This document shows positions 9,293 through 64,000 of a stretch of DNA of 64,000 nt, one piece after another. The translations under genes and the position numbers were made by a program. Numbering within the stretch: position 1 is the stretch's first letter; every line of letters starts with the position of its first letter. Origin of the DNA: an uncultured Planctomycetia bacterium (GTDB lineage Bacteria > Omnitrophota > Gorgyraeia > Duberdicusellales > 4484-171); the NCBI GenBank assembly GCA_964455085.1, contig CAYVYJ010000008.1:1514-65513 (forward strand), read 5' to 3'. The notes under the pieces were generated by a model. The model did no database searches. It was not told where the DNA came from and was given only the letters and a program-made list of their open reading frames with translations.

Positions 9293-9309
9293 GATGTCAA
9301 TAATTTCAC

Positions 9310-9747: not shown

Positions 9748-9753
9748 TCTGGC

Positions 9754-43272: not shown

Positions 43273-43494
43273 TTATTTCAGGTCCTCTTTTGAGTCTTTT
43301 TCAAACTCTTTAACAATTTTTCTTACCTCTAACTCGGTTTTTGTTATTTTTTCCCGGCAGAGCTTGATAAGTTCTATCGCCCTTTTTACTTTTAAAGCCA
43401 CATCGTCAACATCAATTTGTTCTGATTCAAGTTCAGCCAGTATCTTATTTAGCTCTTGGGAAGCTTCAGTGTATTTTATAGCTTTTTTACCCAT
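43273..43494 (-). CDS. xseB: Exodeoxyribonuclease VII small subunit
   Basis: 73 aa helical protein with XseB-like LEELExIVxxLE-type motif (LNKILAELESEQIDVDD). Confidence 0.8.
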   Translation of the reverse strand: MGKKAIKYTEASQELNKILAELESEQIDVDDVALKVKRAIELIKLCREKITKTELEVRKIVKEFEKDSKEDLK

Positions 43495-44837: not shown

Positions 44838-44862
44838 ATAAGTATTTGTCTTATATTTTTTA

Positions 44863-45948
44863 TTAATACTCTAGTAAACCTTTAGCTGAATTAAATACCT
44901 CATCTACAGTAATATCTTTAAGACACTTTAAATCTCTCAAACATTTCGTGAGTCTAAACCTCTGGTAACAAGGCCGGCAGGACAAATCTTTTTTTATCAC
45001 AACATGTTTCTGAAGATTTTCAGGGTACGGTCCGTAAACTGCCTCGCTCACCGGGCCAAAAATTGAAACTGTTCTTATTCCTGAAAATACACCCATATGT
45101 ACTGGGCCACCGTCATTGGCAATTAACAGGGCTGATCTTTGAAGTAGGGCCAAGAAATCAAGCAAAGGCAAATCTATGGCCTTCACCGGCTTATTTTGCA
45201 TCAGGCCTTCTATAGCCTCAATAGTTTCTCTTTCGCTACTGCTTCCGGCCAGAATAATCCGCACCCCACATTGATTAATCAGCTTATCAGCTAACTCCGC
45301 GAACTTAATTCTGGGCCAGTGCTTACGATAAGAGTCGCGTCCCCAGCTCACTCCGCCACAAGGCGTAATCGCGATAAGCGAATCATCAGCCCCAATGCCT
45401 TGTTGGTTTAAGAAATTTGCTGCCTGATTCTTTTGAGTTGCAGTTAAGTTTAACTGAACCTTGCGATACTCGGGCTTAAGGCCTAGCAGTTTCAGAAGTT
45501 CCAGGTAATACTCGATGACGTGTTTGGCTTCATACCCTTTAAGGCTAATCTTCTTAGTTAAAAATCTTCCCCGCTTTTTATAATCATAACCGATTCTTTG
45601 TTTTATCCCCGCAGCCCAGGCGAAAAATCCAAACTGTGAATTTAAAGATAGGTCTATTACAATATCGATGTTTTCTTTTTTTATCTCGGAGATAAAACTC
45701 CCTATTTTCCTGACCCAGGAAAATAGGGACCTTCTCTTAACAGCCTCAAATTCATCTCGCTCATAGACAAAAGTCTTATTGATCAGGATAAAATTTTCTA
45801 ATAGGGCTTGAGTCCTCCGATTGCAGAGGTAAAAAATCTTGCTGGAAGGAAAGTTTTCTTTTAAGTTACTTATAAGCGGTAAAGAGAATAAAACATCTCC
45901 GATACCAAAGGGATTTATTATCAAGAAAGACTTCAGCCTATCTTCCAT
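44863..45948 (-). CDS. GT9 family glycosyltransferase (LPS heptosyltransferase-like)
   Basis: 361 aa. N-terminal LIINPFGIGDVLFSLPLI motif characteristic of ADP-heptose:LPS heptosyltransferases. Confidence 0.75.
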   Translation of the reverse strand: MEDRLKSFLIINPFGIGDVLFSLPLISNLKENFPSSKIFYLCNRRTQALLENFILINKTFVYERDEFEAVKRRSLFSWVRKIGSFISEIKKENIDIVIDLSLNSQFGFFAWAAGIKQRIGYDYKKRGRFLTKKISLKGYEAKHVIEYYLELLKLLGLKPEYRKVQLNLTATQKNQAANFLNQQGIGADDSLIAITPCGGVSWGRDSYRKHWPRIKFAELADKLINQCGVRIILAGSSSERETIEAIEGLMQNKPVKAIDLPLLDFLALLQRSALLIANDGGPVHMGVFSGIRTVSIFGPVSEAVYGPYPENLQKHVVIKKDLSCRPCYQRFRLTKCLRDLKCLKDITVDEVFNSAKGLLEY

Positions 45949-46723
45949 TCTTAATTAAATCTCTATATTTAGCGTAGCTAGTAATCTGATAAAGCGAAGC
46001 AAAGTAAGCTACCATAAAACCAATAAACCCGTCGCGGTAACCTCTCTTAGCAATAAAAGCTCTTAGGAACCTATCGCCGGTGCGCCAGAGGGCATGAACA
46101 AAATTCATCTTATAACCTGCCTTTTTTGGGTCACTCTTGGACAATTTGTACCACTTCTTAGCTTCTAAAGTAGTTTGATTATTAAGCTTGCTCAAGAAAA
46201 TTGCCCAATCCTTGTAAGTATAGTGGATTAAATCACCCCTTAGATGTCCGCATTCACCGATTAAATCAGCCCGAGGGTGAACTTCTACCTCTTCCCACTT
46301 AAATTTATCTCTGCGGAATAACTTTAATTGGGCTGAAGGATATAACCCTCCCCAGCGTACCCAATAATCACCGATAAAGTTTCTTCGGGGTATAGTAAAA
46401 GCATTCACGGCCGGGTGCGAAGCAAGAGTTACTTCAATCTCACTCTTTAACTCCTCAGTCAGCCGTTCATCAGCATCAAGACTTAAAACCCACTGATTAC
46501 TTGCCTGAGAGTAGGCCCAATTCCTATGCCGCCCCTCTATATCCATCTTCCGCACTAAAACCTTTGCACCCAGGCTTTGAGCAAAGCTGCGGGTATTATC
46601 AATCGACTGATCATCAACAACAATTACCTGATCTGCCCACTCCCCTACTGACTTTATGCAATCAACAATTCTCTCTTGTTCATCCTTAGTAAGAATCACT
46701 ATTGATAATGGAATCTTACTCAT
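45938..46723 (-). CDS. GT2 glycosyltransferase
   Basis: 261 aa. SIVILTKDE...DDQSIDNT...DADE GT-A motifs. Confidence 0.75.
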   Translation of the reverse strand: MSKIPLSIVILTKDEQERIVDCIKSVGEWADQVIVVDDQSIDNTRSFAQSLGAKVLVRKMDIEGRHRNWAYSQASNQWVLSLDADERLTEELKSEIEVTLASHPAVNAFTIPRRNFIGDYWVRWGGLYPSAQLKLFRRDKFKWEEVEVHPRADLIGECGHLRGDLIHYTYKDWAIFLSKLNNQTTLEAKKWYKLSKSDPKKAGYKMNFVHALWRTGDRFLRAFIAKRGYRDGFIGFMVAYFASLYQITSYAKYRDLIKNGR

Positions 46724-47439
46724 CCTCTCCTCCCTCTAAAAGAAAACAAATTTAGAAAATTTTTCATAACTACCCAAGAATACAACTTTATATAGACCGG
46801 AATTAGTTTCATCATCTTAAAACTGGATTCACCTTCCTGTCGGGAATTCCAGACTGTAGGTATTTCAGTAATCTTGAATCCTTTAAGGTAGGCTTTAAGT
46901 GGAATTTCCATGGAAATCTCAAAACTTTCAGCCTCCAAATCAATCGCCTCAATGATCTCTCGCTTATACATCTTAAATGAATTAGTAATATCATGAGTTG
47001 GTACTCCTAAAATATAAATGATTCGTCCGGCTAAGCTAGATAAAAAAGTCTTAACTGACGGTCCACCTATTTTTTGGCCACCCCGCATATAGCGAGAACC
47101 ACAGACAATATCATAACCCTGATTGATTTTTTGATACATCTTATTAATTAAGACAGGATCATCACATAAATCAGCCATAACCGAAACAATCAACTCACCC
47201 CTTGCAGCTTTAAAACCAGTTAGCAGTGTATTAGCAAAACCTCTAGGTTCATTATTATCGACTAAGATGATATTTTTATAACGCTTCCTTAATTCTTCTA
47301 CTATCACCCTGGTATTATCGCTGGAATGATCATTAACTACTACAACCTCATAATCTACGGTTAAAGCATCGATAAGGCGAATGATCACCTCTCTGATGCT
47401 CTTCTCCTCATTGTGTGCCGGAATAACTACAGATACCAT
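46720..47439 (-). CDS. GT2 polyprenyl-phosphate sugar synthase (Dpm1-like)
   Basis: 239 aa. VSVVIPAHNE...NDHSSDNT...DLCDDP motifs. Immediately downstream of and abutting a large GT-C-like membrane protein. Confidence 0.75.
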   Translation of the reverse strand: MVSVVIPAHNEEKSIREVIIRLIDALTVDYEVVVVNDHSSDNTRVIVEELRKRYKNIILVDNNEPRGFANTLLTGFKAARGELIVSVMADLCDDPVLINKMYQKINQGYDIVCGSRYMRGGQKIGGPSVKTFLSSLAGRIIYILGVPTHDITNSFKMYKREIIEAIDLEAESFEISMEIPLKAYLKGFKITEIPTVWNSRQEGESSFKMMKLIPVYIKLYSWVVMKNFLNLFSFRGRRG

Positions 47440-49484
47440 TATTTAATTACCTTATAAATTCGAGCATCAGGGTTATTCAAAACTAATTGGAATTTATCAG
47501 AATGTACCTGGGCCCAAAGACCTTCTACCGGTGTATACCTCTCTTCAAGTATATAAACAAAGAGATAATCTGTATTCTCTCCAACCAGATTTCGATACCA
47601 GCGGTTAAAATCAGCTTTACCGCGATAGTTCTCACTTCTCCTTAATACTCTATCAATATGATCATAGCGATATTCTTTCCAATTTAGATTGCCTTGAGGA
47701 TAAAGGTGGAGTTGGGCTGGATGAATATTATTTACTGATACGTAGTAGACATCATTTTTCAAACCTGTCCCGTATAAAGGAAAGGGAACCGGCCGGCCGG
47801 TATAAGCAATTCTTTGGGCTTTAGTGTTATCATTCAACCACTGCCAAGCCTTCATTGCTCCTTCCCAATAAGGAGCGTGACTGAGGTAACGCTGATACTC
47901 ATGATTAAGATACCACTGCTGGCCAATAACAAGACTTAAACTAAGAATAATGAATAACGAAGAAGTCATAGTTACCCTGACTTTTCGCCTTTTAAAACGC
48001 TTGATAAATAGTGGTAAGATAAGAAAAAACGAAACCGTCGCCAGTAAAGAAAATCCTAACTCCCAATATCCGCAGAATTCCGCTATTGAAGTCAGAAAAC
48101 AGATAACCACTAGTGCCCGTATTGCTTTTGAGGGAACTTTTAAAGTCTTTAAGAGATAGGTGGCCATAACCGAGCCGACAGCAAGATAAGGATAGAGAAA
48201 TCTGGTCCAGAGCTGAGGGATAATAAAAGTAAAAATAGCGAAAAGAATGGCCGGAAGCAGGGATAAATAAACTAAGGGAAAACTTAATTTTATTCCCTTA
48301 CTTCTAATTAGAATTATCGGAAAGGCTAAAAAGGTAGCAGGAAATATCAAAATCAGCAGCTGTAGTCCCATACCTTCATGGAAGAACAATTTTCCTAAAT
48401 TATAACCTTCATAGGTCCAACGGACCAGATAGGTAGCGGTGGGCATCACCCCTTTAAAAACAGTTTTTCCCATTAAAACCGCCTTTAAAGGAAATAAGGG
48501 GTTACCGCTAAGAATAAAATTTCTTATATAGCCATAACCGCCAAACAAGGCAATAAGCCCCAGGAACAAAGAGCCATAGCCAACCAATCTTAAACCTTTA
48601 GAGTTTTTAACTAGGATATAAATGAAAAATAATCCTAAAGCTAAACTATAGGCTAAGCTTAAAGTCTTAGTCCCAAAAAATAGCCCAAAGGATATCCCGG
48701 AAATAATTAAGTACCTTAGATTAAACTTCCTATTTAAACTAAATAGAAGATTTAAAGTAGTGAGCAAAAGTGCAGTCATCATAATGTCGGCATAACCAAC
48801 CTCAATCTGTTTAAAAAAGTTAGGAGTAATTACAAACAGACCGGCTGAATAAAATGCCAGCTCCCGAGAAAGGTTGAACTTTCTGGCAATTGCAAAGCAA
48901 GCTATAAAGGAAAGTATAAGAAATGGTATCTGGCCCAAATCAGCGATAAGAACATTCTTAAAAGGGGCGATTAACCAAAAATAATAAAGACAATTATTTA
49001 TCGGATAATAGGTCGGTGTGGGATCATCAGAGATAGTAGGGGGGTTATAGAGATTACCTTGCTTTAGCCACTCAACCGGAAAGGTAAAGTGATAATTAAG
49101 GCTATCCCAGCCAAAAGGAGGGTTTATAAGGTTAAAAATTCCCTTTACTAAAATAAAACCTAAGATACAGGCCAGACAGAATAAAATCACCTTATTTTCA
49201 GTTATCCAACTAAAATCCCTTCTGCCTGCTGCGTATAAAATTTCGTTTTTATTTCGTAAGATAAAACTGACTACTAAGAAGATAAAAAAGTTTACTAAGA
49301 TCAGATTACCCAAGAAAAGCTTACCAAAGATACCTAAAATCATCTCAGTAAGTATGATCTGGGCCAGAAACAGAAGCGAAAAATTACATATCCGATCAGA
49401 AAGGTTGGGACAATAGAAAGCTTTTCTTACGATACGGGCAGAAGTAAAAGCAACAATGAGATTAAGAATAAGGAAATTAATCAT
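47439..49484 (-). CDS. Large polytopic membrane protein, putative GT-C-fold glycosyltransferase
   Basis: 681 aa. At least 12 TM helices in N-terminal 500 aa (loop with GWDSLNYH), C-terminal about 170-aa soluble aromatic-rich domain. Abuts the downstream Dpm1-like GT2 gene (stop at 47439 adjoins its start). Confidence 0.5.
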   Translation of the reverse strand: MINFLILNLIVAFTSARIVRKAFYCPNLSDRICNFSLLFLAQIILTEMILGIFGKLFLGNLILVNFFIFLVVSFILRNKNEILYAAGRRDFSWITENKVILFCLACILGFILVKGIFNLINPPFGWDSLNYHFTFPVEWLKQGNLYNPPTISDDPTPTYYPINNCLYYFWLIAPFKNVLIADLGQIPFLILSFIACFAIARKFNLSRELAFYSAGLFVITPNFFKQIEVGYADIMMTALLLTTLNLLFSLNRKFNLRYLIISGISFGLFFGTKTLSLAYSLALGLFFIYILVKNSKGLRLVGYGSLFLGLIALFGGYGYIRNFILSGNPLFPLKAVLMGKTVFKGVMPTATYLVRWTYEGYNLGKLFFHEGMGLQLLILIFPATFLAFPIILIRSKGIKLSFPLVYLSLLPAILFAIFTFIIPQLWTRFLYPYLAVGSVMATYLLKTLKVPSKAIRALVVICFLTSIAEFCGYWELGFSLLATVSFFLILPLFIKRFKRRKVRVTMTSSLFIILSLSLVIGQQWYLNHEYQRYLSHAPYWEGAMKAWQWLNDNTKAQRIAYTGRPVPFPLYGTGLKNDVYYVSVNNIHPAQLHLYPQGNLNWKEYRYDHIDRVLRRSENYRGKADFNRWYRNLVGENTDYLFVYILEERYTPVEGLWAQVHSDKFQLVLNNPDARIYKVIK

Positions 49485-50688
49485 GTTTAGTTACTAATAA
49501 TTTATTATGCACCACTGCTAGACCGATAATTATCCAAAACAGAGACTGAATTCGCTCATCCCATATATTATCCACTATATTTACTATAACAAAAGCTAAG
49601 AAACCGGTAAATAATCCATACCATAGTAAATCCTTCTTTGATGATAAGAATACTTTAAAGGTCCGCTTAAGGAACCAGAAATAAACCAACAGACCCAATA
49701 GACCAGCTTCTACAGCAATTAATAAATACCAGCAGTGAGGATTGGCTTTAATAACCAAAGGTGATTGAGTATATTTTTTAGCTATTTGAACGCTTGTTGT
49801 ATTTATCCCCTTTCCTAAAATAGGATTTTTTGCGGTCTCAAGCAAATACTCCTTCCATATAGCAACTCTTCCCCCTTGATCATAGAATACAGCATTAACG
49901 CCAGTAATAATTCTTCCTTTAAAAATAGGTGAAAAAAATACACTAGATATCACCAGCAGCAGCAGAATAGGTATAATTCGGACTATTTTTAGTTTACTAA
50001 AAAATAAAGTAATACTAAGGCTGGCGATTAAGGCAGCCCAGGAGATAAGCGAGCAGCTGATGAATAAACATATCAGGAATAACCAAAAAAGAATTAAGCC
50101 ATATACCTTAACTCTTTTCTTCTTGCTGCTGAATAAGAAAGACAATATTATCGGCGAAAGTAAAATAAGAAATGCACCAAAAGGGTTTAAGCCGCTAAAA
50201 TAGCCCCTTACCCAGGTTCCTTTAATCGGATAGGAACGCAAGAAATCAACGCCAGTCACAAACTGCCAGATACCATCGATAAATATTATTCCTAAAGATA
50301 CCGAAAATATTCCCAATACTATCCTTAATTTCTTTCGAGAGTCAATAATATCTACGGTGAAGAAATATAGCATAATATATTGGACCCACTTAGTGAAAAA
50401 GGTTCTTAGGCTCTTAGCCGGAGCAAAACTATTAAAAATCGTAAGGAATAATACAGTCAGCATAACTACAATCGGTAAATTTAGAGTTGTCTTGGGAAAG
50501 TACTCTTTTATTTTCCATTTCTTTACTAAAAAGTTTTCAATAACCCAAAGAAGAAATATCAACCCAAAAGTTACTTCGATAACTGCCTTAGACATTGCCA
50601 CAAAGGCAATTAGCAGGCAAAAAATATAAAACTTAATATTTCGCAAATGGTTAACTGCTGAAATGCTCTGATCAAGCATCACTGTCAT
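49477..50688 (-). CDS. O-antigen ligase/polymerase (WaaL/Wzy_C)-like membrane protein
   Basis: 403 aa, about 10-11 TM helices with a larger periplasmic loop in the C-terminal half. No diagnostic motif can be read with certainty. Confidence 0.45.
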   Translation of the reverse strand: MTVMLDQSISAVNHLRNIKFYIFCLLIAFVAMSKAVIEVTFGLIFLLWVIENFLVKKWKIKEYFPKTTLNLPIVVMLTVLFLTIFNSFAPAKSLRTFFTKWVQYIMLYFFTVDIIDSRKKLRIVLGIFSVSLGIIFIDGIWQFVTGVDFLRSYPIKGTWVRGYFSGLNPFGAFLILLSPIILSFLFSSKKKRVKVYGLILFWLFLICLFISCSLISWAALIASLSITLFFSKLKIVRIIPILLLLVISSVFFSPIFKGRIITGVNAVFYDQGGRVAIWKEYLLETAKNPILGKGINTTSVQIAKKYTQSPLVIKANPHCWYLLIAVEAGLLGLLVYFWFLKRTFKVFLSSKKDLLWYGLFTGFLAFVIVNIVDNIWDERIQSLFWIIIGLAVVHNKLLVTKHD

Positions 50689-51895
50689 CTCTCCTTTGTT
50701 TATTCTTCCCTAGAGCTTCGGTTTCAGAGAAAGCCCGATTGAAAATATTTTCTGCTAAGCAAAATGGCCTAAACATCTTAATCCCTTCACGATAGTTTTG
50801 GAAGTCCTCTTCGCTGGCAATAATCTTTTTTACCGCTGAAATAAAATCACTAATACGATACTCAATAACCTCACCAGCACCGGTTTCAGAGATAAGCTCG
50901 GAAACGTAAGGTGCAGAAGTAATAATAGTCGGTAATCCTAATAAGGCGTATAATTTTGGTTTGCCAGGATCAGCATAAAGTGAATTATCGCTTTCATCTC
51001 CGGTCCAAGTAGCTAAACCCACCATGCACTGGGAGAGTATAGTATAAGCGTATTTATCATCACGGATAAATCCCTGAAATATGAAGTGTTTATTTAACTC
51101 CTTATCTTTAACTTTCCTTTTTAGTTGAGCAGCATAGGGGCCATCCCCGATTATGCGAACTTTTATTTCCGGGAATTCTCTAATTAGTTCAGGGATAGCA
51201 TCTATAACCATCTGCAGCCCTTGATTTTCAGAAAGAGTCCCTATAAACCCTAAACTCCAGCGCTCTCTGTCCTCAAGGGATAAATCATAAGAGATACCCG
51301 GTGCATAACCCAAAGGAACAATTACCTCACCATAAGAATCAGCAGCTAATCCTGAATAATGCTGGCGGGCCCACTTAATACGGGGAGATATATGCCATAC
51401 AGTATCAACGCTCCTAATAATTAATTTATCGATATTCCTAAACATAATATTAATTAACCAATTAAAGTTAATTCTCTTAGGGGGTGGATAGTAATCGAGG
51501 CAGTAGTAAACTACCCTTTCTACCTTACCTAACTTCTTTAAAATTAACCCGAGCATTGTAGAAAAAGTGGCAACTCCGATAAAAAGATCAAATTTTTTAT
51601 TTAATCTCCTCACCGCTTTAAAAAAAGAATAGATATATACTAAAAAAGAGAAACAAATGCGCACTTGAGTTAAGACACTCATTTTTCCTACCTTATAGCT
51701 AGGGAGACTAAATTCTCTTTTCTTTACACCTTGCTCATAAAGGGTGCAGCGCGATTCATTATAAGAAGCAAAAGGACTCATTACTCCGATGACCCCCAAA
51801 GAATGTGCTTTTTTGCAGAGATAATCCTCTAAAGCCTCTGTACGGCTGGTTTTTAGCTGGCCGGCTATTAAAACTTTTAGTTTTCCTAAATCCAT
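50672..51895 (-). CDS. GT4 (GT-B fold) glycosyltransferase
   Basis: 407 aa. C-terminal IIGDGPYAAQLKR...E motif resembling the GT4 EX7E region. Confidence 0.7.
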   Translation of the reverse strand: MDLGKLKVLIAGQLKTSRTEALEDYLCKKAHSLGVIGVMSPFASYNESRCTLYEQGVKKREFSLPSYKVGKMSVLTQVRICFSFLVYIYSFFKAVRRLNKKFDLFIGVATFSTMLGLILKKLGKVERVVYYCLDYYPPPKRINFNWLINIMFRNIDKLIIRSVDTVWHISPRIKWARQHYSGLAADSYGEVIVPLGYAPGISYDLSLEDRERWSLGFIGTLSENQGLQMVIDAIPELIREFPEIKVRIIGDGPYAAQLKRKVKDKELNKHFIFQGFIRDDKYAYTILSQCMVGLATWTGDESDNSLYADPGKPKLYALLGLPTIITSAPYVSELISETGAGEVIEYRISDFISAVKKIIASEEDFQNYREGIKMFRPFCLAENIFNRAFSETEALGKNKQRRDDSDA

Positions 51896-51902
51896 AATCT
51901 AT

Positions 51903-52952: not shown

Positions 52953-52956
52953 AGGT

Positions 52957-55028: not shown

Positions 55029-55056
55029 CTATCCTCCTATCTTATTGATACCTTTC

Positions 55057-56016: not shown

Positions 56017-56026
56017 AATTCCCTCT

Positions 56027-57358
56027 CTAATTTTTTCCTTCTCCTAAATATTTAATATTTATCTTAAAATTCTTATCTCTAAATATCCCCCAACAATCAA
56101 AAATAACTAAATCTTTTTTGCAAACAGACAAATCGATCTCTCTGAACTCATCCCAGGGAGTTGTGATTAATAGAATATCGGCTTCTTCTGCACAGGCCTG
56201 GCTATTATTAGCATACCTGACCCCATCACCAAAAACACCCCTGGCTGCATCTAAACTCTGGGGGTCATAAACCATTATTCTGTAACCCTGGTTAATTAAC
56301 AGCTCTACAATATCTATAGCTTGTGAATCTTCAATGATTGGTGTATTCGGTTTATAAGAGAGTCCCAAGACCCCGATAAGAACATTCTCACTTTTCTTGC
56401 CTGACTGACCAATCAAATTCTTTACTATATTTTCAATTCTCCGTACCTGATCTTGGTTAACCTCGTCAACCATCTCAGCTAACTTTGCTTTTTGTCCAAC
56501 TTTTCTGGCAAAAGCAGCGAAGGCTACGTTATCACGCGGAAAACATGGCCCGCCAAAACCCAAACCGGGTTTTAAGTATTTTCTTCCGATACGAGTATCC
56601 ATTCCGATTGCCCTGGTAATAGCTTGAGAGTTGGCTCCGGGAACTTTCTCACAAACCGAAGCTAAAGAATTTGCATAAGTTATCTTCATGGTCACGTAAC
56701 AATTAAGTGAAATTTTGGCAATCTCAGCACTGACCAGATTCATCCTCCCAAACTTAGGATTATTCTCACAGGTTCTCTTATGGATTTCCTCCAAGATATC
56801 TCCGTCCTTTTTGCTGAACTCCCCGATTAGAATAAAGTCAGGGTTTAAGAAATCATGGATTACACTTCCTAAAGCAATAAACTCAGGATTATAAGCTATC
56901 CCAAAATCCTTACCGCATTTTTTCCCCGATATTCCTTCCAAGATAAATTTTCCCACATGTTCAGTAGTCCCGGGCATGACGGTTGAAGTAATAGCTACCA
57001 GATGGTAGCTATTTTTATTCTTCAAAGCTGAGCCGATTGCTTTTAGTGATTCCTCTAGCTGCTGATTGGAAAATGAACCATCAGCTTCTGAAGGTGTAGC
57101 AACAACGATAAAAGTTACATCAGAATTATTAATCGCTTGGCTGTAATCAGTCGTTGCTTGTAAATTACCTTTACACGCCTCAAGAAACGCAGTTAACCCG
57201 GTTTCACTAACTGGGTTCTTCCCCTTATTAATCAAGTCTACTCTCTGAGCATCAATATCCACTCCAACCACCTTATAGCCCTTGCTGGCAAAACAGGCAG
57301 CCGAGCATAAACCCAGTTTACCTAAACCAATTACCGATATTGAATTAATATTCTTCAT
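56027..57358 (-). CDS. Nucleotide-sugar 6-dehydrogenase (UDP-glucose/GDP-mannose dehydrogenase family)
   Basis: 443 aa. N-terminal ISVIGLGKLGL NAD motif. Catalytic Cys region GFGGPCFPRD. Confidence 0.85.
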   Translation of the reverse strand: MKNINSISVIGLGKLGLCSAACFASKGYKVVGVDIDAQRVDLINKGKNPVSETGLTAFLEACKGNLQATTDYSQAINNSDVTFIVVATPSEADGSFSNQQLEESLKAIGSALKNKNSYHLVAITSTVMPGTTEHVGKFILEGISGKKCGKDFGIAYNPEFIALGSVIHDFLNPDFILIGEFSKKDGDILEEIHKRTCENNPKFGRMNLVSAEIAKISLNCYVTMKITYANSLASVCEKVPGANSQAITRAIGMDTRIGRKYLKPGLGFGGPCFPRDNVAFAAFARKVGQKAKLAEMVDEVNQDQVRRIENIVKNLIGQSGKKSENVLIGVLGLSYKPNTPIIEDSQAIDIVELLINQGYRIMVYDPQSLDAARGVFGDGVRYANNSQACAEEADILLITTPWDEFREIDLSVCKKDLVIFDCWGIFRDKNFKINIKYLGEGKN

Positions 57359-57512
57359 ATATATCCCTCCAGATAAAAACTAATTATAAGACTCTTCTAT
57401 TACCAAAGCATTGTTGAAGCCACAGACTTTTTCCACTAAATGAGTTTCGCCTCCACCGGTGTTCGGAGAAAAAACGGTGTCAAAATCAATATTCCCTTAC
57501 TATTCATATTTA

Positions 57513-59309
57513 TTATGATTTCTTTGATATCATAAAATTCTCAATTGCCATATATTCAAGACCAGAATTATCAAAAGTAAAAACGGCCTGTTCCAATGTC
57601 CCTACCAAAGGATAGCCATGCAAATTTAGGCTAGTATTAAGCAATCCTCCTATTCCAGTTAAGTTTTCAAAGTGTTTTAGAAGACGGTAATAGTCTGGGT
57701 CTATTTCTTGATTTAAAATCTGAGGCCGCAAGGTTTTATCTTTAGGGTGTATAGCGGCTAAAAGATGTTCTATGGCCAATGGAGTTGAATCAAAAGCAAT
57801 TATCATAAACCGTGAAGAATCTAGTATCCTATCCTTTAGTGAATCCCAATTCTTAATATACTTTGGCGCCCATTCTTGAAGAATTGTCGGTGCAAAAGGC
57901 ATCCAAAAATCCCTCATCTTGATCATATCATTAACTCTGTAAAAAGTTCTTATATCGGAAGGATTTCCTAAAATTGAACGATGCCCCAAAGCTCTTGCCC
58001 CGAACTCTCCTTTACCCTTAAACCTTGCGACTATCTCTTTGGAAGCAAGAAGGCAAGCTATTTTATCTTCCATATCATCAAAGAAATCAACTTTGTATTT
58101 TTGAAAATAACCCTTTTCTTTAAGAAACTTCTCTGCCTCTTGATTGTTATACTCTAAACCTAAATACATACTCCTAGGCAAGTGAGAGGTAGAATTATTT
58201 TCCATAGTTTGAAGGTAATATGCACCGAAGACAGTACTCTCGTCGCCAGCTGAAGGCATAAAATAGGCTTTATCGATATTATTGCTTTCCGAAATAATTT
58301 TATTCATTTTAACATTCAAAAATACTCCTCCGCTACAAGCTATTTTTCTAATACCGGTTTTCTCTACTGCCGCCTCAATCCATTCACAAACATAATTTTC
58401 TACTAACTTCTGTATCGCTGCAGAAACATTATCAAATCTAATACCGCTAAGTCTTTCTCTAAGGAAATTATGAGCTATATTAAGATTTATTTTGGATTTA
58501 AAAGTTAGGCTTTCCTTATCCAACCACACTAAATCTTTTAATCTATCATAAGCTAAAGAATAGTATTTAGGATCATTGACAAAGGCTGCTAACCCCATAA
58601 CTTTATACTCATGTTCGTTCGGCTTCATTCCCAAAAACTTAGTTACTTCTGAATACAGGAGCCCTAAAGAAGCTTCAAAGCCTGAAGAAGACACTAAAGA
58701 ATATTCATCTTTGCCTTTAGTCGAATCATAGATAAATATCTTAGCAAAAGACATATCTCCGGCACCATCCATTGAAATTAACAAATACTTATCTTTTTTC
58801 TCATTTAAGTTATAAAAAGAGACTGGGGAAAAACAATGACAGGTGTGATGGTCCATGTATTTTATTTTTGAATCCGGAATGGAAAAATTTCTATTTAAAA
58901 AGACTTCAAACTCTTTTTTGCAATTAGGGGATATAATTCTATTAAGAATAAAATTTCTTATACCTAACATAGAATTCTTTATCAAAGAGCACCTATAACC
59001 ACCTTTATATTCTAAATAATTCCAAATCGACCTTAGCCTGCTACGCGAGGCTTCTTCAATCAAATCCTTTTTGTCCGGAATAAACAAAAATAACATATTC
59101 TTCATAGGGTTAAGAAAACTTTCGATTTTATGGAAATCTTGGCCTAACTTACCAGAGAGGTATTTTATTGAATTATCAGGGGTACCTATGTAATTTTTGA
59201 TATTGGTAAGCTTCTCTTCCTGAAGGATAAAGGGAGGTTTCCCTTCTTCAAATAACCCTACGGTTGCATTATGCCCCGGATAGATAACTAAAACTTTTGA
59301 ACTATTCAT
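57513..59309 (-). CDS. Carbamoyltransferase (NodU/CmcH family)
   Basis: 598 aa. Two-domain architecture with HHxxH-like region (MDHHTCH) and C-terminal LNTSLN...PLV motif typical of NodU/CmcH O-carbamoyltransferases. Confidence 0.7.
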   Translation of the reverse strand: MNSSKVLVIYPGHNATVGLFEEGKPPFILQEEKLTNIKNYIGTPDNSIKYLSGKLGQDFHKIESFLNPMKNMLFLFIPDKKDLIEEASRSRLRSIWNYLEYKGGYRCSLIKNSMLGIRNFILNRIISPNCKKEFEVFLNRNFSIPDSKIKYMDHHTCHCFSPVSFYNLNEKKDKYLLISMDGAGDMSFAKIFIYDSTKGKDEYSLVSSSGFEASLGLLYSEVTKFLGMKPNEHEYKVMGLAAFVNDPKYYSLAYDRLKDLVWLDKESLTFKSKINLNIAHNFLRERLSGIRFDNVSAAIQKLVENYVCEWIEAAVEKTGIRKIACSGGVFLNVKMNKIISESNNIDKAYFMPSAGDESTVFGAYYLQTMENNSTSHLPRSMYLGLEYNNQEAEKFLKEKGYFQKYKVDFFDDMEDKIACLLASKEIVARFKGKGEFGARALGHRSILGNPSDIRTFYRVNDMIKMRDFWMPFAPTILQEWAPKYIKNWDSLKDRILDSSRFMIIAFDSTPLAIEHLLAAIHPKDKTLRPQILNQEIDPDYYRLLKHFENLTGIGGLLNTSLNLHGYPLVGTLEQAVFTFDNSGLEYMAIENFMISKKS

Positions 59310-60124
59310 TATCTTATTAGTGATTCTTTAAGATACAAAAAACCTGATACAATCTTTAAAAAATACATCCCTAAAGATAGTAATGGGTGTCTAAACAATT
59401 TTTTCCATTTACCTTTTTCAGAAAATACTCCAAAGTACCGATAAAAGAAACCTAATTGTTTTTTAATCGTTTTATCTTTTCTGCCCCATTTGTCTATATA
59501 CCTACTAAGATTTTTAGCATAGTAACCTTTTTTTTGTAAATATCTCTTAAAGCTGAACGCTTCTTCGCTATGATACAAAGGACTTTTAATTATACCTACT
59601 TCTCCTATCGCCCTAATCCTTCTATCAAGATCCCAATCTTCAGGCCCGGTTAGATTCTCGTCAAAGCCATCGATTTTTAAAAATTCATCTCTTCGAATAA
59701 ATCTTATACAATCTATTACTGTTGCATTATAAAAACTTCTTTCAAAATCTCTTATTTTAGTCCAGAATCCTCTACCAACTATCCTTTCCGGAATGTATAA
59801 AGCAATCAAGCTTTGACACTCACACATTTGTACACACTTACCTAAAACACCCTCCGATAAACTCATATCAGCATCCAGATATAAAATATACTTTCCCGAT
59901 GCTTCTTTGATACCTAAATTTCTCTGTACGCTTCTTTCAGGACCGTAATTAAAAACTTTATTGGTATATTTTTTTGCTATTTCTTTAGTCCTGTCGGTTG
60001 AATTATTATCAACAACGATTATTTCTATCTCAGTCTGCGGATAAATCTGTCCTTTAATCGAATTTAAACAATTCTCGATATTTTTTTCTTCGTTTTTGGT
60101 GGTAATTACTACTGAGACTAACAT
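59309..60124 (-). CDS. GT2 glycosyltransferase
   Basis: 271 aa. SVVITTKNEE...VDNNSTDRT...DADM motifs. Confidence 0.75.
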   Translation of the reverse strand: MLVSVVITTKNEEKNIENCLNSIKGQIYPQTEIEIIVVDNNSTDRTKEIAKKYTNKVFNYGPERSVQRNLGIKEASGKYILYLDADMSLSEGVLGKCVQMCECQSLIALYIPERIVGRGFWTKIRDFERSFYNATVIDCIRFIRRDEFLKIDGFDENLTGPEDWDLDRRIRAIGEVGIIKSPLYHSEEAFSFKRYLQKKGYYAKNLSRYIDKWGRKDKTIKKQLGFFYRYFGVFSEKGKWKKLFRHPLLSLGMYFLKIVSGFLYLKESLIR

Positions 60125-60182
60125 CTTTTAGATTAAACTATATTTTGGTAGTTGCTTGAAAATTACAGATAGGGAATTAATT

Positions 60183-61364
60183 TTACTTGCTAACATACCT
60201 CCTGCAAATCTCTGCTAATTTTTTTGCATAGCCCTCCCAGGTGTAACTCTTAGCCCTTAACCAGGCTTCTCGACCCATCTGCTCTGTCTTAACCTTATCG
60301 TTAAATATTTTATTAATACAATTTAGGAGTTCTTTAGAATTTCCTCTTTCCGGAAAATATCCCTGCACCCAGTTTTCAAACAAATCAGCAGCACCAGAGC
60401 CTTTAGGAATGATTATCGGACATCCGCAGGCCGCAGCTTCCAGTGACTGCATGCCAAAAGCTTCATGGACAGGATGAACATGAACCATAGCCTCTGAACA
60501 TAATTTCATAATCATCTCTTCATCTAAAGGACCAATCAATTTAACCCTATCTTCTAACTTTCTTTTTCTGACTTCTTTCTGAAACTCCCCACGCAGTGTT
60601 AGTGGGTGCCAAAAACCACCAATGGTTAATTTTATATCCTTTTGATTCAACCCCTCTAAAATGTCTAAAAAAACATTAGGGATATTTCCAATATCCCAAC
60701 GGTCGTAGGTAAGAATCATCTTTTTACGAGAAGAAAATGCAGGCAATTGGTCTTTCACGAAACATCCTGGCACCAATATCTCTAAGGGTTTCTTAGTTAA
60801 CCTCTTAAAATGCTGATGATGAAATTTACCGCTGGTAATTATTGCTTTTGCCTTGGCAAAGGCAAACTTATCCAATATCCTTGCCCCCAAATAAAGAAAA
60901 GGATACTTCCAACCAAATCTATTCTTGTATATTTTGCTAGCTGTAAAAGTAGCTGGATCCCAAACTAGTAATAAGAATGGTATTTTACAATGTTTTTTAA
61001 TATTTCGGGCAGCAAATGTACTATATTGACAATTTGCAATAATTAAATCAAATTCATTTCTCCTGATGCTTCGATGGGCAAAAAACCAGCTAGCAATATG
61101 GTGCAAAGAAAAGAATGACATTCCGGGAAACTTGAAATTTATTCTCTGAATCCATTTAGGAAACTTAGAAAATAAATACTTCACCTTCACGCCTTGAAGA
61201 TGAAAATCGTAATGCTCTTTATTATTCTTCCAATGGTCTTTCTCAATAATTATCAAGGCTTCTGCATTAAGGCCTAATTCCTTTAGTTTACGAATCGGCC
61301 AGCCGATAAGTTTGGGGGCACTTCCGGGAGCTATTTCATCAACTAAAATTCCTATTTTCATCAA
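60183..61364 (-). CDS. GT4 (GT-B fold) glycosyltransferase
   Basis: 393 aa. C-terminal E...E region (HPVHEAFGMQSLEAAACGCPII) characteristic of GT4. Confidence 0.7.
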   Translation of the reverse strand: MMKIGILVDEIAPGSAPKLIGWPIRKLKELGLNAEALIIIEKDHWKNNKEHYDFHLQGVKVKYLFSKFPKWIQRINFKFPGMSFFSLHHIASWFFAHRSIRRNEFDLIIANCQYSTFAARNIKKHCKIPFLLLVWDPATFTASKIYKNRFGWKYPFLYLGARILDKFAFAKAKAIITSGKFHHQHFKRLTKKPLEILVPGCFVKDQLPAFSSRKKMILTYDRWDIGNIPNVFLDILEGLNQKDIKLTIGGFWHPLTLRGEFQKEVRKRKLEDRVKLIGPLDEEMIMKLCSEAMVHVHPVHEAFGMQSLEAAACGCPIIIPKGSGAADLFENWVQGYFPERGNSKELLNCINKIFNDKVKTEQMGREAWLRAKSYTWEGYAKKLAEICRRYVSK

Positions 61365-61408
61365 ACTTTAATCTCCTTTGGAATCCTTAGTAACAAATAT
61401 TTTCTTAC

Positions 61409-62425
61409 TCATACTTTTCCCCCTCTTAAAAATTCTCTAATCATCTTCCTGCCTTCAGGCCTAGTCAAAGTAAGATAAATATAAGTTGCAGCTTGAAAAA
61501 AACTAACTACCGGGTGGTATAGCCAATAAATGTTTCTGTCGCGTATCATGAGCCATAAAGCATGGGCCAGGGAAAATACAGGGATAATACTATAAACGGC
61601 CCATAAAAAAACTTTGGTTTTAAAACCTCTACTGACAATCCAACCTAAATTTCGTGTTTTTCTCTGTTGCAGGAAGTGACTGACATAATTTCTCCTCCAC
61701 TTCGAAACCCACTGACTTAAAGAGCGCAAATGGTGATGGCAAACAAATAAATCCTTAAAATAGATTACTTTATTCTTACCACCCTCTATTAAAACTTGAA
61801 AAACATCATTGTCACCTAAGAAACCTTTTCTTAAAATGATATCTCGAACCCAAGCAGTCCTATAGGTAAGTCCATTTGCACCCCAGATAAGAGACCGTCC
61901 TTCCTCTATCTCGAACAAATAACCTGTTCTGCCATCAAAGTTCATTCGAGATGCCTTCTTTAAATAACGTCCGAGATTTTTGCTAATACAAAAAGAGAGT
62001 GGATCATTCTGAATGAGTTCATAATAGCGATTAATTTTAGAATCTCCTGGAGATGGAATCATCTTACACCAGAATGTAGAAATATCTTTGTCTGATAAAA
62101 AAATCTGATTAATCGTTTTTAGCCAATCTCTTCCCACTAAACTATTATCAGCGGCAAAGGCTACGAAAAGCTCTCCGGTTGCCTCTTTTGCTGCAATCTT
62201 TGCGCCAAAATCAGCTAATCTTTTAGGATTAGAAAAGATCTTTACGAATTTATACTTAGAAGCAATTTCTACTGTTTTATCTATTGACTCACCGTCAACA
62301 AGTAAAACTTCGATTTTATCCTGGGGGTAATCTTGACAAGCTATGCTATCCAAACATTCCTTAATCATCGCCTCTTCGTTGTAAACCGGAAGAGAGAAAC
62401 TAAATTTTAAAAATTTATCACTCAT
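61409..62425 (-). CDS. GT2 glycosyltransferase with C-terminal TM segment
   Basis: 338 aa. SFSLPVYNEE...VDGESIDKT GT-A N-terminus. C-terminal hydrophobic helix. Confidence 0.7.
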   Translation of the reverse strand: MSDKFLKFSFSLPVYNEEAMIKECLDSIACQDYPQDKIEVLLVDGESIDKTVEIASKYKFVKIFSNPKRLADFGAKIAAKEATGELFVAFAADNSLVGRDWLKTINQIFLSDKDISTFWCKMIPSPGDSKINRYYELIQNDPLSFCISKNLGRYLKKASRMNFDGRTGYLFEIEEGRSLIWGANGLTYRTAWVRDIILRKGFLGDNDVFQVLIEGGKNKVIYFKDLFVCHHHLRSLSQWVSKWRRNYVSHFLQQRKTRNLGWIVSRGFKTKVFLWAVYSIIPVFSLAHALWLMIRDRNIYWLYHPVVSFFQAATYIYLTLTRPEGRKMIREFLRGGKV

Positions 62426-62426
62426 A

Positions 62427-62696
62427 TTAACTTACCCCTTTAGAAATATCTTCAAGATTTGAAATTAGAAAATCCGGCTTCTCTTTATTTACCAACATCC
62501 TTGTCCTTATCCCGCTAGTTACGCCTATAAAACCGGCTTTTTTAAAAATCTTTGGCCACGAAGTCTTCTTCTTCTTCAGACCCCAAAAGGCTCTTTTCCC
62601 AAGCTTTAATTTGCCTCCAGCAATATCAAGAAATACCTTATAGTATCTCTTCGATACATCAAGAATTGGTCCGTCAAAATCAAAAAATATCTTCAA
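62427..62696 (-). pseudogene. Truncated HAD-superfamily hydrolase fragment (motif I only) or small HAD-like domain protein
   Basis: 89 aa. FDFDGPILD HAD motif I at the N-terminus. Motifs III/IV (K, DD) are not present. Overlaps upstream ATP-grasp stop by 4 nt. Confidence 0.35.
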
Positions 62697-63691
62697 GACA
62701 AACTCTTTTTCTTAGAAAATAAATATTTTTCTTCCCAATACCTCATCATGTAGCACCCATCTACAAAATCTAACTCTTGAGGAGTTAAATCTAAAGGGGT
62801 CTTCGACCCCAGATGCATTTTTATAAGCAATAAGGGCAGGTTAACTCCAGCTTCTACGGCAAGAGGGAGGCCGGCGCCAAACTTAGGATTAACTTCAATC
62901 AAATAAAAATCATTATTTCTCTCAATAAATTGGATGTTACAGGGTCCGTTTATATCAAATTTCTTAGCAATTTCCTTAGCCAGACTCATTAGTTTCTCAT
63001 TTTTAACAGTTTTCCCTTTAAAAATCTGCCCGGCTTTTACTACGATCCGTTCCCGAGGAATTGCCTGAAGGATTTCACCCTCTGGTGAAGCAAGAATGTC
63101 CACTGTATATTCTCTTCCTTCAATGCGTTCTTGCCATATATATTCTTTTATATTGCCAATTTGCAGGCCCTCAAGTTGTTTCTCATTCTCAATAAAGTAA
63201 AGGTCTTGACTACCACGCCCATTCAATGGCTTTATAACGCCTGGATATTGAGCGACATTTTCGTTTGAATTAATACCTATTTTAGCAGTATGCGGGCATC
63301 TGATATTATTCTTTTCACAAAACTGATAGGTTTGCCACTTATCATTAGTCCGTTTAACAACTTCTAAATCATTTACCAAAACTTTTATCCCTAACTTATC
63401 ATTAAATACTTTCTTCTCAGCAGCAAAAATCGCTAATTCTTCATCGATTATAGGAATTATTACCAAAACATTTTTATCTTTACAAATTTTCTTTATTTTA
63501 GGAATAAAATTTGAGTCGTTTGAGGCCGGGGTTATACAGTAGTCATTTGCCAGTTGAAATCCTGCTGAATATTCGCCCATATCAATAGCAATAATATTTA
63601 TGTCCAGTTCTTTCTGCTTACGCAAAGCCTTAATTACACTGATTGCTGGCGTAGAACCGGCACTGCTCACTAGAACATTAATCTTCTTCAT
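62693..63691 (-). CDS. ATP-grasp domain enzyme (carboxylate-amine ligase-like)
   Basis: 332 aa. N-terminal pre-ATP-grasp Rossmann-like region and central ATP-grasp fold (KP.GSG...E.IEG.EYTVD). Confidence 0.65.
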   Translation of the reverse strand: MKKINVLVSSAGSTPAISVIKALRKQKELDINIIAIDMGEYSAGFQLANDYCITPASNDSNFIPKIKKICKDKNVLVIIPIIDEELAIFAAEKKVFNDKLGIKVLVNDLEVVKRTNDKWQTYQFCEKNNIRCPHTAKIGINSNENVAQYPGVIKPLNGRGSQDLYFIENEKQLEGLQIGNIKEYIWQERIEGREYTVDILASPEGEILQAIPRERIVVKAGQIFKGKTVKNEKLMSLAKEIAKKFDINGPCNIQFIERNNDFYLIEVNPKFGAGLPLAVEAGVNLPLLLIKMHLGSKTPLDLTPQELDFVDGCYMMRYWEEKYLFSKKKSLS

Positions 63692-64000
63692 CTAATCAGT
63701 TACCTTTACTGCTTTACCGCCGCTGGCTATTGATTTTTTTGCTGCTCCTAATACCGCTACAGCATCTAGACCTCTCTTTAAATAGCTATTGGCGGCCTTT
63801 CCTTTTCTAACAAAACTGATAAAATCTTCACACTCTATTAACAAAGGCTCTCTTATCTTAATACTAGAAGCAATTTCTTGCCCAGATTTTATAATCATCT
63901 TAAATTCTTCAAAAGTATGATAAGGCTGCTCGTACTTTCGCTTCATGACCCGCTTATCATAAATCTTTATCGGATGAGTGTAATCTAAATCATTAAACAT
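63692..64000 (-). CDS. Hypothetical protein; ATG lies at the window edge, so the N-terminus may extend beyond 64000
   Basis: 102 aa ORF whose ATG is at 63998-64000, the last bases of the window. No recognisable motifs. Stop abuts the ATP-grasp start. Confidence 0.35.
   Translation of the reverse strand: MFNDLDYTHPIKIYDKRVMKRKYEQPYHTFEEFKMIIKSGQEIASSIKIREPLLIECEDFISFVRKGKAANSYLKRGLDAVAVLGAAKKSIASGGKAVKVTD

Follow-up and report, generated by a model that had tools for sequence, protein, structure and literature searches.

What would a 19-kb run of sugar-handling genes build in an uncultured bacterium, and how exceptional is it to find in such a run an epimerase that is usually discussed as an enzyme of plant vitamin C synthesis? 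Both questions are raised by a stretch of 64,000 nucleotides (the window, by which I mean the whole analysed stretch) from contig CAYVYJ010000008.1 of assembly GCA_964455085.1, a genome deposited as an uncultured Planctomycetia bacterium and placed by GTDB in the Omnitrophota. The glycan cluster considered here occupies positions 44863-64000, where it is contiguous, has every gene on the minus strand and is therefore read from 64000 towards 44863, and among its genes is a homolog of GDP-mannose 3,5-epimerase (GME). The answer that I favour, with rather more confidence than doubt, is that this interval would be the downstream part of a one-strand cluster of more than 21 kb that builds a decorated cell-surface heteropolysaccharide in a bacterium making lipopolysaccharide (LPS). 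As a kind of locus it is already known, namely a modular locus of the O-antigen or capsule type that includes a bacterial GME, and the modest leads that it offers are a GME-linked subfamily of sugar dehydrogenases and a trio of GME, carbamoyltransferase and methyltransferase genes.

An earlier note on this DNA had counted twenty co-directional genes here; the shared direction is real, and the interval holds 18 open reading frames (ORFs), the majority of which abut or overlap, with intergenic gaps ranging from -53 to +154 nt. The same note had described a surface-glycan locus carrying carbamoyl, methyl and ATP-grasp tailoring genes, a description that family assignments and synteny bear out, and the tailoring and precursor enzymes that it named (a B12-binding radical SAM protein, a SAM-dependent methyltransferase, a nucleoside diphosphate (NDP)-sugar dehydrogenase, a carbamoyltransferase and an ATP-grasp ligase) all score above the Pfam gathering threshold. 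Its inventory of glycosyltransferases (GTs) stands for GT9 (Pfam, 89 bits) and for the two GT4 enzymes and has to be cut from six to five for GT2 (starts at 45938, 46720, 51903, 59309 and 61409), the sixth lying outside at 41382-42080. The remainder of the window consists of housekeeping genes (lpxA, ilv/leu, aro, ftsK, pnp and rpsO), and the presence of lpxA (25051-25929) points to a diderm that produces lipid A. The cluster occupies a conserved position in the chromosome, with xseA-xseB and, beyond these, rpsO-pnp-ftsK downstream of it; xseA (43494-44837) lies between the cluster and a second GT2/membrane protein pair, and xseB (43276-43494), whose 72-aa product fell below the 85-aa ORF filter, has an ATG overlapping the xseA stop by one base. 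The named closest homologs of the GME, the dehydrogenase and the ATP-grasp protein come almost all from Candidatus Omnitrophota, the phylum to which the host most likely belongs. Promoter-like sites in 44001-64000 number 57 against 60.5 in shuffled sequence and terminator-like sites 15 against 14.9, so operon boundaries cannot be set by such predictions; tRNA and Rfam scans of the 64-kb window found nothing.

How stable this arrangement is can be judged by comparison with related contigs, for which the proteins of the window were searched by tblastn and the called genes of those contigs were inspected. Because most of the cluster is syntenic in at least four other contigs, the arrangement is not due to chance; the cluster is, however, neither complete within the window nor one fixed unit. 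Its core runs from the dehydrogenase (56027-57358) through the GME (55057-56016), the methyltransferase (54363-55028, an accessory gene absent in L010), the B12-binding radical SAM protein (52957-54366), a GT2 (51903-53009), a GT4 (50672-51895), a Wzy_C membrane protein (49477-50688) and a 681-aa polytopic protein (47439-49484) to a small GT2 (46720-47439), and is shared at 70-93% identity with L009, 67-88% with L114 and 51-86% with L010, as well as in part with L098 and L115. Upstream lies a second block composed of a Gfo/Idh/MocA oxidoreductase, the ATP-grasp protein, a HAD hydrolase remnant, a 338-aa GT2 with one C-terminal hydrophobic segment (61409-62425, 68-75% identical in L115 and L116) and a GT4 (60183-61364, 70-73% identical in L010, L115 and L116), and this block recurs in L115 and L116 at 61-75% identity. 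Between the two is a cassette of a GT2 (59309-60124) and the carbamoyltransferase that is translationally coupled to it (57513-59309), found complete only in L114 (82% and 93%, respectively) and absent from L010, L098, L115 and L116; L094 has a homolog of the GT2 (78%) without the carbamoyltransferase. The downstream end is formed by another accessory cassette, a GT2 (45938-46723, 85% identical in L009 and absent in L010) with the GT9 gene (44863-45948), the latter being seen in none of the related loci compared. Composition varies along the same lines, since against surrounding GC contents of 0.36-0.39 the carbamoyltransferase cassette is low (GT2 0.314, carbamoyltransferase 0.340), as is the methyltransferase (0.335), and the downstream cassette is high (GT2 0.416, GT9 0.404). 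The conserved core with exchangeable cassettes that these sequence comparisons show is the usual pattern of surface-antigen loci in which diversity arises through the exchange of cassettes.

The chromosomal site tells a similar story. An Omnitrophota metagenome-assembled genome (MAG; L004/L011) has, in order, genes for a Wzy_C protein, a carbamoyltransferase, a methyltransferase, GME, xseA and xseB, followed by rpsO, pnp, ftsK and rodZ-like and miaB-like genes, that is, the same backbone as the window with a different and shorter glycan set, which implies a glycan locus at a fixed site upstream of xseA that varies between genomes. Farther upstream than the window reaches, L115 and L116 have two short-chain dehydrogenases/reductases (SDRs) ahead of the homologous block and, beyond these, a Wzx-like Polysacc_synt gene (with an extra ATPase gene between in L116), L115 also has an upstream B12-binding radical SAM gene, and L114 has a similar upstream set, Wzx-like gene included. 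Assembly of the Wzx/Wzy type is likely on the strength of these Wzx-like neighbours; the window itself supplies the Wzy_C protein and seven GTs and ends inside the cluster, so that the Wzx-like gene is seen only in relatives. GDP-mannose metabolism is likewise represented beside GME in relatives, by a GMPPB-type nucleotidyltransferase in L008 and by Gmd in L015. The locus is a clear example of modular, cassette-wise diversification of a surface glycan in a phylum with very few cultured members.

Two side observations belong to this comparison. The gap between dehydrogenase and GME genes, 10 bp in the window, bears selfish or defence-like genes in relatives (a DUF4143 AAA ATPase, 23S_rRNA_IVP proteins, a HEPN and nucleotidyltransferase pair and YhcG/DUF1016), at L009:995-2185, L114:11347-11733, L116:3294-3650 and 14626-14996, and L008:6208-7327 and 8899-9981, and looks like an insertion hot spot. 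Also, L010 (CAZGLF010000022.1), which is labelled 'uncultured Planctomycetia', is syntenic with Omnitrophota loci and carries an rpsO 89% and an xseA 63% identical to those of the window, and its bin may be misclassified.

Such mosaicism invites another explanation, in which the interval would hold not one cluster but several adjacent systems brought together at a recombination-prone site: a repeat-unit set for an O-antigen or capsule, a periplasmic pair of a polyprenyl-phosphate sugar synthase and a GT-C-like protein, and an extension of the LPS core by GT9 and its GT2. The independent gain and loss of blocks among relatives, with their differing GC contents, the absence of GT9 from the related loci compared, the movement of the 681-aa GT-C-like protein and the small GT2 as a pair in L009, L010, L013 and L114, and the similar pair of GT2 and membrane protein beyond xseA/xseB all speak for it. 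On the other hand, the one-strand packing is tight, with overlapping stops and starts throughout, and the core from dehydrogenase to small GT2 is kept as a unit in L009, L010 and L114. I regard several systems as a possibility to be entertained tentatively, and as one that is compatible with a single decorated heteropolysaccharide cluster rather than exclusive of it.

Turning to the gene that prompted the second question, the product of 55057-56016 (minus strand) is an extended SDR of the Pfam Epimerase family (165 bits) whose best matches among PDB sequences, both full length by phmmer, are the plant GMEs 8sg0 (E 6.9e-102, 344 bits) and the Arabidopsis structure 2c59 (E 4.3e-101), and the next families follow at a great distance, GDP-fucose synthase at 5e-34 (121 bits) and UDP-glucose 4-epimerases at 1e-29 or worse (at most 107 bits). 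By BLASTP it is 47-48% identical to plant GME, and the characterised enzyme of Methylacidiphilum fumariolicum, MfGM35E, is 50.5% identical to the Arabidopsis enzyme, AtGME (PMC6678494). The residues that define the family are, in Arabidopsis numbering, the triad S143/Y174/K178, the acid-base pair C145/K217, R306, which acidifies the catalytic Cys, and the substrate contacts N203 and R243, and GDP-fucose synthase (GMER) has His in place of K217 and Lys in place of R306 (PMC8787198). All eight are kept here, as S117, Y148 and K152 (aligned with the triad), C119 and K191, R283, N177 and R219, and the N-terminal NAD motif reads GAGGFIG; at the discriminating columns the protein has C/K/R against C/H/K in Escherichia coli Fcl, in agreement with that review (PMC8787198). 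The sequence blocks on which the earlier note had based its call (LAADMGG, SSACIYP, FHNIFGP and GGREKAPAA) are present and conserved. In a distance-based neighbour-joining tree without bootstrap, which covers 109 sequences (the family reduced to 50%-identity representatives, a pair of plant GMEs, five bacterial homologs that carry names and, as outgroups from E. coli MG1655, Fcl, Gmd, RfbB and RfbD), the clade that unites the epimerase with AtGME leaves out all four outgroups, so that the grouping with ordinary 4-epimerases or dehydratases that the note had named as its own refutation is not what is seen. By all available sequence tests, then, this protein is a GME-type enzyme.

What does not survive is the claim that such an enzyme is rare in bacteria. 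A word-indexed search returned at least 8000 clusters at E <= 1e-20, the best 120 of which are 73-91% identical to the epimerase of the window and include named Omnitrophota, Nitrospirae, Scalindua and Chlamydiae MAGs, some of them already annotated as GDP-mannose 3,5-epimerase; an exhaustive search over 50%-identity representatives gave at least 150 clusters, those listed all at E <= 6.5e-72; and a scan with one genome per GTDB species confirmed relatives in at least 468 genomes, each of a different species, with about ten phyla represented. The best 80 of these species-level relatives are 64-92% identical and come from Omnitrophota, Planctomycetota, Acidobacteriota, Binatota-like 'delta proteobacteria', Chloroflexota, Actinomycetota, Gemmatimonadota, Rhodothermales and Chlamydiota, as well as from one cultured Clostridium. 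A bacterial GME was moreover characterised in 2019 (PMC6678494), and GME-like enzymes have been proposed or described for the pathways of the antibiotics bleomycin and A201A. An enzyme usually discussed for its part in plant vitamin C synthesis, with one characterised bacterial example, is thus a routine component of surface-glycan loci in Omnitrophota, Acidobacteriota, Planctomycetota, Binatota, Chloroflexota and others, and it follows that uncultured bacteria probably often carry residues of L-galactose or L-gulose.

Which of the two sugars would be made here is the next step. The catalytic set of the epimerase is identical to that of AtGME and MfGM35E, whose main product is L-galactose, yet GM35E enzymes produce mixtures of L-galactose, L-gulose and altrose (PMC8787198), and the pairing of a carbamoyltransferase with GME mirrors bleomycin, whose disaccharide consists of L-gulose and 3-O-carbamoyl-mannose (PMC8787198). 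An enzyme yielding mainly or only GDP-L-gulose (through the 5-epimerisation put forward for BlmG) or a different epimer, GDP-altrose for instance, is on these grounds conceivable though unlikely, and the outcomes are indistinguishable by sequence.

The neighbouring dehydrogenase (56027-57358, minus strand) raises a bolder possibility. It has all three domains of the UDPG_MGDP_dh family and scores 363 bits with TIGR03026, is about 35% identical to Pseudomonas aeruginosa AlgD and equally so to several UDP-glucose dehydrogenases (UGDHs), and has an N-terminal domain nearer to AlgD (43%) than to UGDHs (32-36%). The catalytic K, N, C and D are kept at the AlgD columns K210, N214, C268 and D272. Four positions set UGDHs apart as a group, Lys at index 215, Pro at 219, Leu at 359 and Gly at 406 (Freas et al. 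2016, PMC4794789), and at these the protein has T (UGDH K, AlgD R), M (P and L), V (L and H) and G (G and A), respectively; its motifs NPEFIALGS, GGPCFPRD and KPNTPIIEDS stand where NPEFLRE(G/S), GGSCxPKD and K..TDDxRES are found otherwise. The UGDH equivalog models are not reached (AglM 321 against a cut-off of 670, TuaD 274 against 700). Two familiar assignments were tried and set aside: an AlgD-type GDP-mannose dehydrogenase, as T, M, L, V and G occupy the columns of Arg122, Leu126, Cys213, His217 and Ala263, and a UDP-GlcNAc dehydrogenase of the WbpA/TviB type, which is unlikely with 83 bits for the TviB model against 321 for AglM.

The same features recur in about 30 dehydrogenases of the fetched loci, nearly all of them within about 3 kb of a GME homolog and some, in certain phyla, in inverted gene order with it. 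When loci were collected by the dehydrogenase instead, GME adjoined six of eight subfamily members and none of eight canonical UGDH-like enzymes (Fisher p = 0.007), a small sample in which the six positives are fairly close relatives. Judged by sequence, the enzyme belongs to a distinct subfamily that is tightly linked to GME and matches neither the UGDH nor the AlgD group.

Could the two enzymes then form a single pathway to a GDP-L-hexuronic acid, that is, GDP-L-galacturonate or GDP-L-guluronate? GDP-mannose would be oxidised to GDP-mannuronate and then 3,5- or 5-epimerised, or else GDP-L-galactose or GDP-L-gulose would be oxidised at C6, and the carboxylate may then be amidated by the ATP-grasp enzyme. 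The idea draws on the subfamily motifs that fit neither group (T/S at index 215, V/I at 359, NPEFIALGS, GGPCFPRD and KPNT..(I/V)E.S; positions from PMC4794789), on the AlgD-like leaning of the N-terminal domain and on the adjacency to GME, counted above, that spans several phyla in both gene orders. It is weakened by the AlgD substrate contacts His217 and Ala263, which are Val and Gly here and so close to the Leu and Gly of UDP-glucose dehydrogenase, by the simpler account that two enzymes supplying one polymer would be co-located anyway, by a sample of loci that is small and partly related by descent, and by a literature search that found no such nucleotide sugar or pathway. I therefore consider a joint pathway distinctly unlikely; if it were true, bacterial glycobiology would gain a new nucleotide sugar.

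The second lead concerns decoration. The carbamoyltransferase (57513-59309, minus strand) is of the NodU/CmcH/TobZ type, with the expected two-domain architecture of a Kae1-like N-terminal (Carbam_trans_N, 107 bits, cut-off 24) and a YrdC-like C-terminal part (Carbam_trans_C, 166 bits, cut-off 27), and a stretch resembling HHxxH, MDHHTCH, was seen by eye. NovN, GdmN and TobZ are its matches in the PDB (E 1e-41 to 1e-32), the first two over the full length and TobZ over the C-terminal half (query 291-596). Among 80 loci collected by GME, 16 have a carbamoyltransferase within 3 kb of it, with just 25-34% identity to that of the window, and in 11 of these loci, which are Binatota-like, the gene is directly upstream of GME at about 100 bp. 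The gene order of L015 is methyltransferase, GT4, unknown, carbamoyltransferase, GME, GT4 and Gmd, so that GME, carbamoyltransferase and methyltransferase occur as a trio both in the Omnitrophota, where the window and L004/L011 have it, and in a phylum far removed from these. The methyltransferase of the window (54363-55028, minus strand) is a class-I SAM-dependent enzyme by Pfam (Methyltransf_23/11).

The most far-reaching reading of both leads, which I hold to be quite improbable, would be that an uncharacterised dehydrogenase subfamily coupled to GME across several phyla makes with it a GDP-L-hexuronic acid for which no biosynthetic route is known, and that the trio specifies a carbamoylated, methylated L-hexose epitope widespread on uncultured bacteria. 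The B12-binding radical SAM protein (52957-54366, minus strand; B12-binding 87 bits, Radical_SAM 73 bits), with its Cx3Cx2C motif in GCPYSCTFC, is well conserved (93% in L009, 87% in L114, 75% in L010 and 68% in L098) and reached no NCBIfam equivalog cut-off. B12-radical-SAM enzymes carry out several chemistries, C-methylation being just one, and C-methylation of a sugar is accordingly possible as one option among several.

The remaining genes of the core bear on how the glycan would be assembled and where it would be attached. Besides the GT4 (50672-51895, minus strand), which is 65-79% identical in L009, L010 and L114, there is the GT2 of 51903-53009 (minus strand), also assigned by Pfam and having one C-terminal hydrophobic segment. 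As called, it starts at a TTG at 53009 and overlaps the radical SAM gene by 53 nt, and the L009 ortholog begins after the radical SAM stop; in the window the gene probably begins at 52952, with an ATG that lies four bases past the stop of its own radical SAM gene. The protein that the earlier note had called WaaL/Wzy-like (49477-50688, minus strand) is upheld by Pfam Wzy_C (53 bits, above the gathering score), with about 11 hydrophobic segments and a weak match to TIGR03097, as an O-antigen ligase, polymerase or O-oligosaccharyltransferase type. The Wzy_C fold is common to WaaL, Wzy and PglL.

The GT-C assignment of the 681-aa protein (47439-49484, minus strand) is less secure: the protein is a polytopic membrane protein that has about 12 hydrophobic segments, ends in a soluble part and carries an invariant DD at 153-154, and its sole Pfam match, even in a relaxed search, is PMT_2 at 23 bits against a cut-off of 26.1. 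A profile of five orthologs gave no match among PDB sequences, hhalign gave a probability of 1% against the bona fide PMT_2 protein of the window, and a single-sequence AlphaFold model (pLDDT 41) was unusable. The small GT2 (46720-47439, minus strand) is of the polyprenyl-phosphate sugar synthase type, its best NCBIfam matches (ArnC, PgfS and DPhHxTase) all being below cut-off, and its coupling to the 681-aa protein in all relatives suggests an ArnC/ArnT-like periplasmic step.

It is very unlikely that the glycan is linked to protein and not to lipid A, with the Wzy_C protein serving as an O-oligosaccharyltransferase of the PglL type and the PMT_2-like one O-glycosylating proteins, since the matches that suggest this (the former's sole NCBIfam match, 'putative O-glycosylation ligase', well below cut-off, and the latter's sole Pfam match) are below or near thresholds, lpxA and the GT9 gene favour LPS, and no acceptor protein is evident.

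As for GT9 itself (44863-45948, minus strand), it is of the heptosyltransferase family and falls below all heptosyltransferase equivalog cut-offs (II, 113 against 134.6; III, 100 against 170; I, 50 against 185), and the GT2 of its cassette (45938-46723, minus strand), like those at 59309-60124 and 61409-62425 and the GT4 at 60183-61364 (all minus strand), is a Pfam assignment. Within the GT9 coding sequence, at 45699-45729, lies a perfect palindrome with a 14-bp stem, TCCCTATTTTCCTG ACC CAGGAAAATAGGGA.

At the upstream end, the ATP-grasp ligase (62693-63691, minus strand, 332 aa) is of the ATP-grasp_3 / PylC-like_N kind ('CPS-like', PRK12767 type) by Pfam, with NCBIfam matches below cut-offs and the structural-genomics entry 2pn1 as its best PDB match (E 1.4e-28). 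In L115, L116 and L117, down to 40% identity, its homolog is followed directly by a HAD_2 hydrolase of 186-208 aa. The corresponding gene in the window (62427-62696, minus strand, 89 aa), rightly called a HAD fragment in the earlier note, is by alignment an in-frame, internally deleted remnant of such a hydrolase: it aligns with residues 1-58 and the final 31 residues of the 208-aa protein L116:7999-8625, with 69% identity over the retained ends, and keeps motif I (DFDG) and the C-terminus, while about 119 central residues are missing and with them the stretch in which the motif IV match (GDTEIDI) falls. Pfam HAD_2 matches the full-length protein only, the remnant having no Pfam match, and the identical 89-aa ORF occurs in other samples, so the deletion is not an assembly error.

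Read from the alignment, the HAD partner of the ATP-grasp enzyme is inactivated, and the ATP-grasp step may be altered or decaying. A 333-aa SDR epimerase/dehydratase stands between the orthologs of the GT2 at 61409 and the GT4 at 60183 in L115 (9614-10615) and L116 (9640-10641), where the window has a 44-bp gap (61364-61409), and L116 additionally has a B12-radical-SAM gene ahead of the GT4 ortholog; the missing SDR together with the HAD deletion suggests that the block of ATP-grasp, HAD, GT2 and GT4 is being trimmed. A role for the ATP-grasp protein as the source of carbamoyl phosphate was also considered and is unlikely, given its single 332-aa domain, its conserved HAD partner and its place in a cassette separate from the carbamoyltransferase. 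The window end cuts the next gene, so that 63692-64000 (minus strand) has just the last 102 codons of a Gfo/Idh/MocA oxidoreductase of 340 aa, and the identical sequence continues to full length in Logan contig L090 (1621-2643). Its best NCBIfam match is the archaeal UDP-GlcNAc 3-dehydrogenase (148 bits, cut-off 450), and upstream of it in L090 are a DegT-family aminotransferase (best NCBIfam model PseC with 273 bits, short of its cut-off) and an SDR of which the C-terminal half is present, from which I infer that amino-sugar genes lie just outside the window end.

Taken as one decorated heteropolysaccharide cluster, the genes would work together as follows. The GME would turn GDP-D-mannose into GDP-L-galactose and/or GDP-L-gulose, and one of the GT2 or GT4 enzymes would transfer the L-hexose; the dehydrogenase would supply a hexuronic acid, and the upstream SDR, the DegT aminotransferase and the Gfo/Idh/MocA oxidoreductase an amino sugar. 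On these the methyltransferase would O-methylate a sugar, the carbamoyltransferase would O-carbamoylate a repeat-unit sugar, possibly the L-hexose or mannose, from carbamoyl phosphate and ATP by way of carbamoyl-AMP, the route that TobZ takes, and the ATP-grasp ligase would make an amide on the amine of the amino sugar or on the uronate. The repeat unit would be built on undecaprenyl phosphate, flipped by a Wzx-type flippase (of the kind seen only in relatives) and polymerised or ligated by the Wzy_C protein, and the small GT2 and the polytopic protein would add, as ArnC/ArnT do, a further sugar on the periplasmic side, with a polyprenyl-phosphate as donor. Several findings weigh against this scheme: the window has no GDP-mannose pyrophosphorylase, phosphomannomutase, flippase, initiating phosphoglycosyltransferase or chain-length regulator; the dehydrogenase is unlike UDP-glucose and GDP-mannose dehydrogenases at group-specific positions, which ties the hexuronic acid to no particular sugar or nucleotide; the ATP-grasp module, having lost a working HAD partner, is possibly in decay; the 681-aa protein is not established as a GT-C enzyme; and with GT9 below the heptosyltransferase cut-offs the link to the LPS core is only suggestive. 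Whatever the polymer, the locus is of practical value as a source of candidate biocatalysts, these being a mesophilic bacterial GME, the carbamoyltransferase and methyltransferase linked to it and an atypical dehydrogenase.

Elsewhere in the window, the sixth GT2 (41382-42080, minus strand), a polyprenyl-phosphate-sugar-synthase-like enzyme with AglJ and PpgS as best matches, stands beside a 383-aa polytopic membrane protein with no family match (42113-43264, minus strand), and the two may be a second synthase/transferase pair; the syntenic MAG L004 has a Methyltransf_21 protein and a different GT2 at this place between xseB and rpsO. Another small glycan-type gene set occupies 611-9292 and comprises a bona fide PMT_2 GT-C (611-2221), a radical SAM protein (2223-3356), a GT2 (3353-4405), a B12-radical-SAM protein on the plus strand (4705-6162) that is 27% identical to that of the cluster, an AsnB-type amidotransferase (6309-8117) and a DAO-family oxidoreductase (8171-9292), and the combination of GT-C, radical SAM and GT2 is met again both in this genome and in relatives, for example L008. 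The minus-strand gene at 26673-28547, which lies two genes upstream of lpxA, fuses a cyclic-nucleotide-binding domain to a patatin-like phospholipase.

How, finally, does this locus compare with systems already described? The closest parallels are the GMEs themselves, as AtGME (PDB 2C59) and MfGM35E are extended SDRs that align with the epimerase over its full length and share its Ser/Tyr/Lys triad, Cys/Lys pair, Cys-acidifying Arg and Asn/Arg contacts, and the gene for MfGM35E, like that in the window, adjoins glycosyltransferase and methyltransferase genes (PMC6678494); the plant enzymes differ in having an N-terminal extension of about 25 residues and a role in ascorbate synthesis, neither of which applies here. 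Pairs such as ArnC/ArnT and Ppm/Pmt resemble the small GT2, with its sub-threshold matches to ArnC, PgfS and dolichyl-phosphate hexose transferases, translationally coupled to a large polytopic protein that is at most a candidate GT-C enzyme. The HS:2 capsule locus of Campylobacter jejuni offers a parallel for the ATP-grasp and phosphatase pair in a locus with an NDP-sugar dehydrogenase (a UDP-glucose dehydrogenase in C. jejuni) and an aminotransferase: there the C-terminal ATP-grasp domain of Cj1438 joins serinol phosphate or ethanolamine phosphate to glucuronate as an amide, and Cj1435 takes off the phosphate (PMC11800379). The C. jejuni domain is TupA-like, whereas the ligase of the window is of the ATP-grasp_3 / PylC-like_N type and its phosphatase partner is internally deleted. 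The putative carbamoyltransferase WapO (PA5005) of the Pseudomonas LPS core is of the NodU family and is encoded in an LPS glycan cluster with GT9 enzymes (PMC8005017), but the GT9 of the window falls short of the heptosyltransferase cut-offs, genes for heptose synthesis or kinases are absent, and the carbamoyltransferase lies with a GT2 in a mobile cassette. Bleomycin biosynthesis, with the GME-like epimerase BlmG, shares the conjunction of a GME-type epimerase with an O-carbamoyltransferase-type activity on sugars derived from GDP-mannose (PMC8787198, PMC6678494). It does so in an actinomycete secondary-metabolite pathway that places a disaccharide on a peptide, whereas the window has a polysaccharide locus with a Wzy_C protein and many GTs and no NRPS or PKS. 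The carbamoyltransferase of the bleomycin pathway is BlmD.

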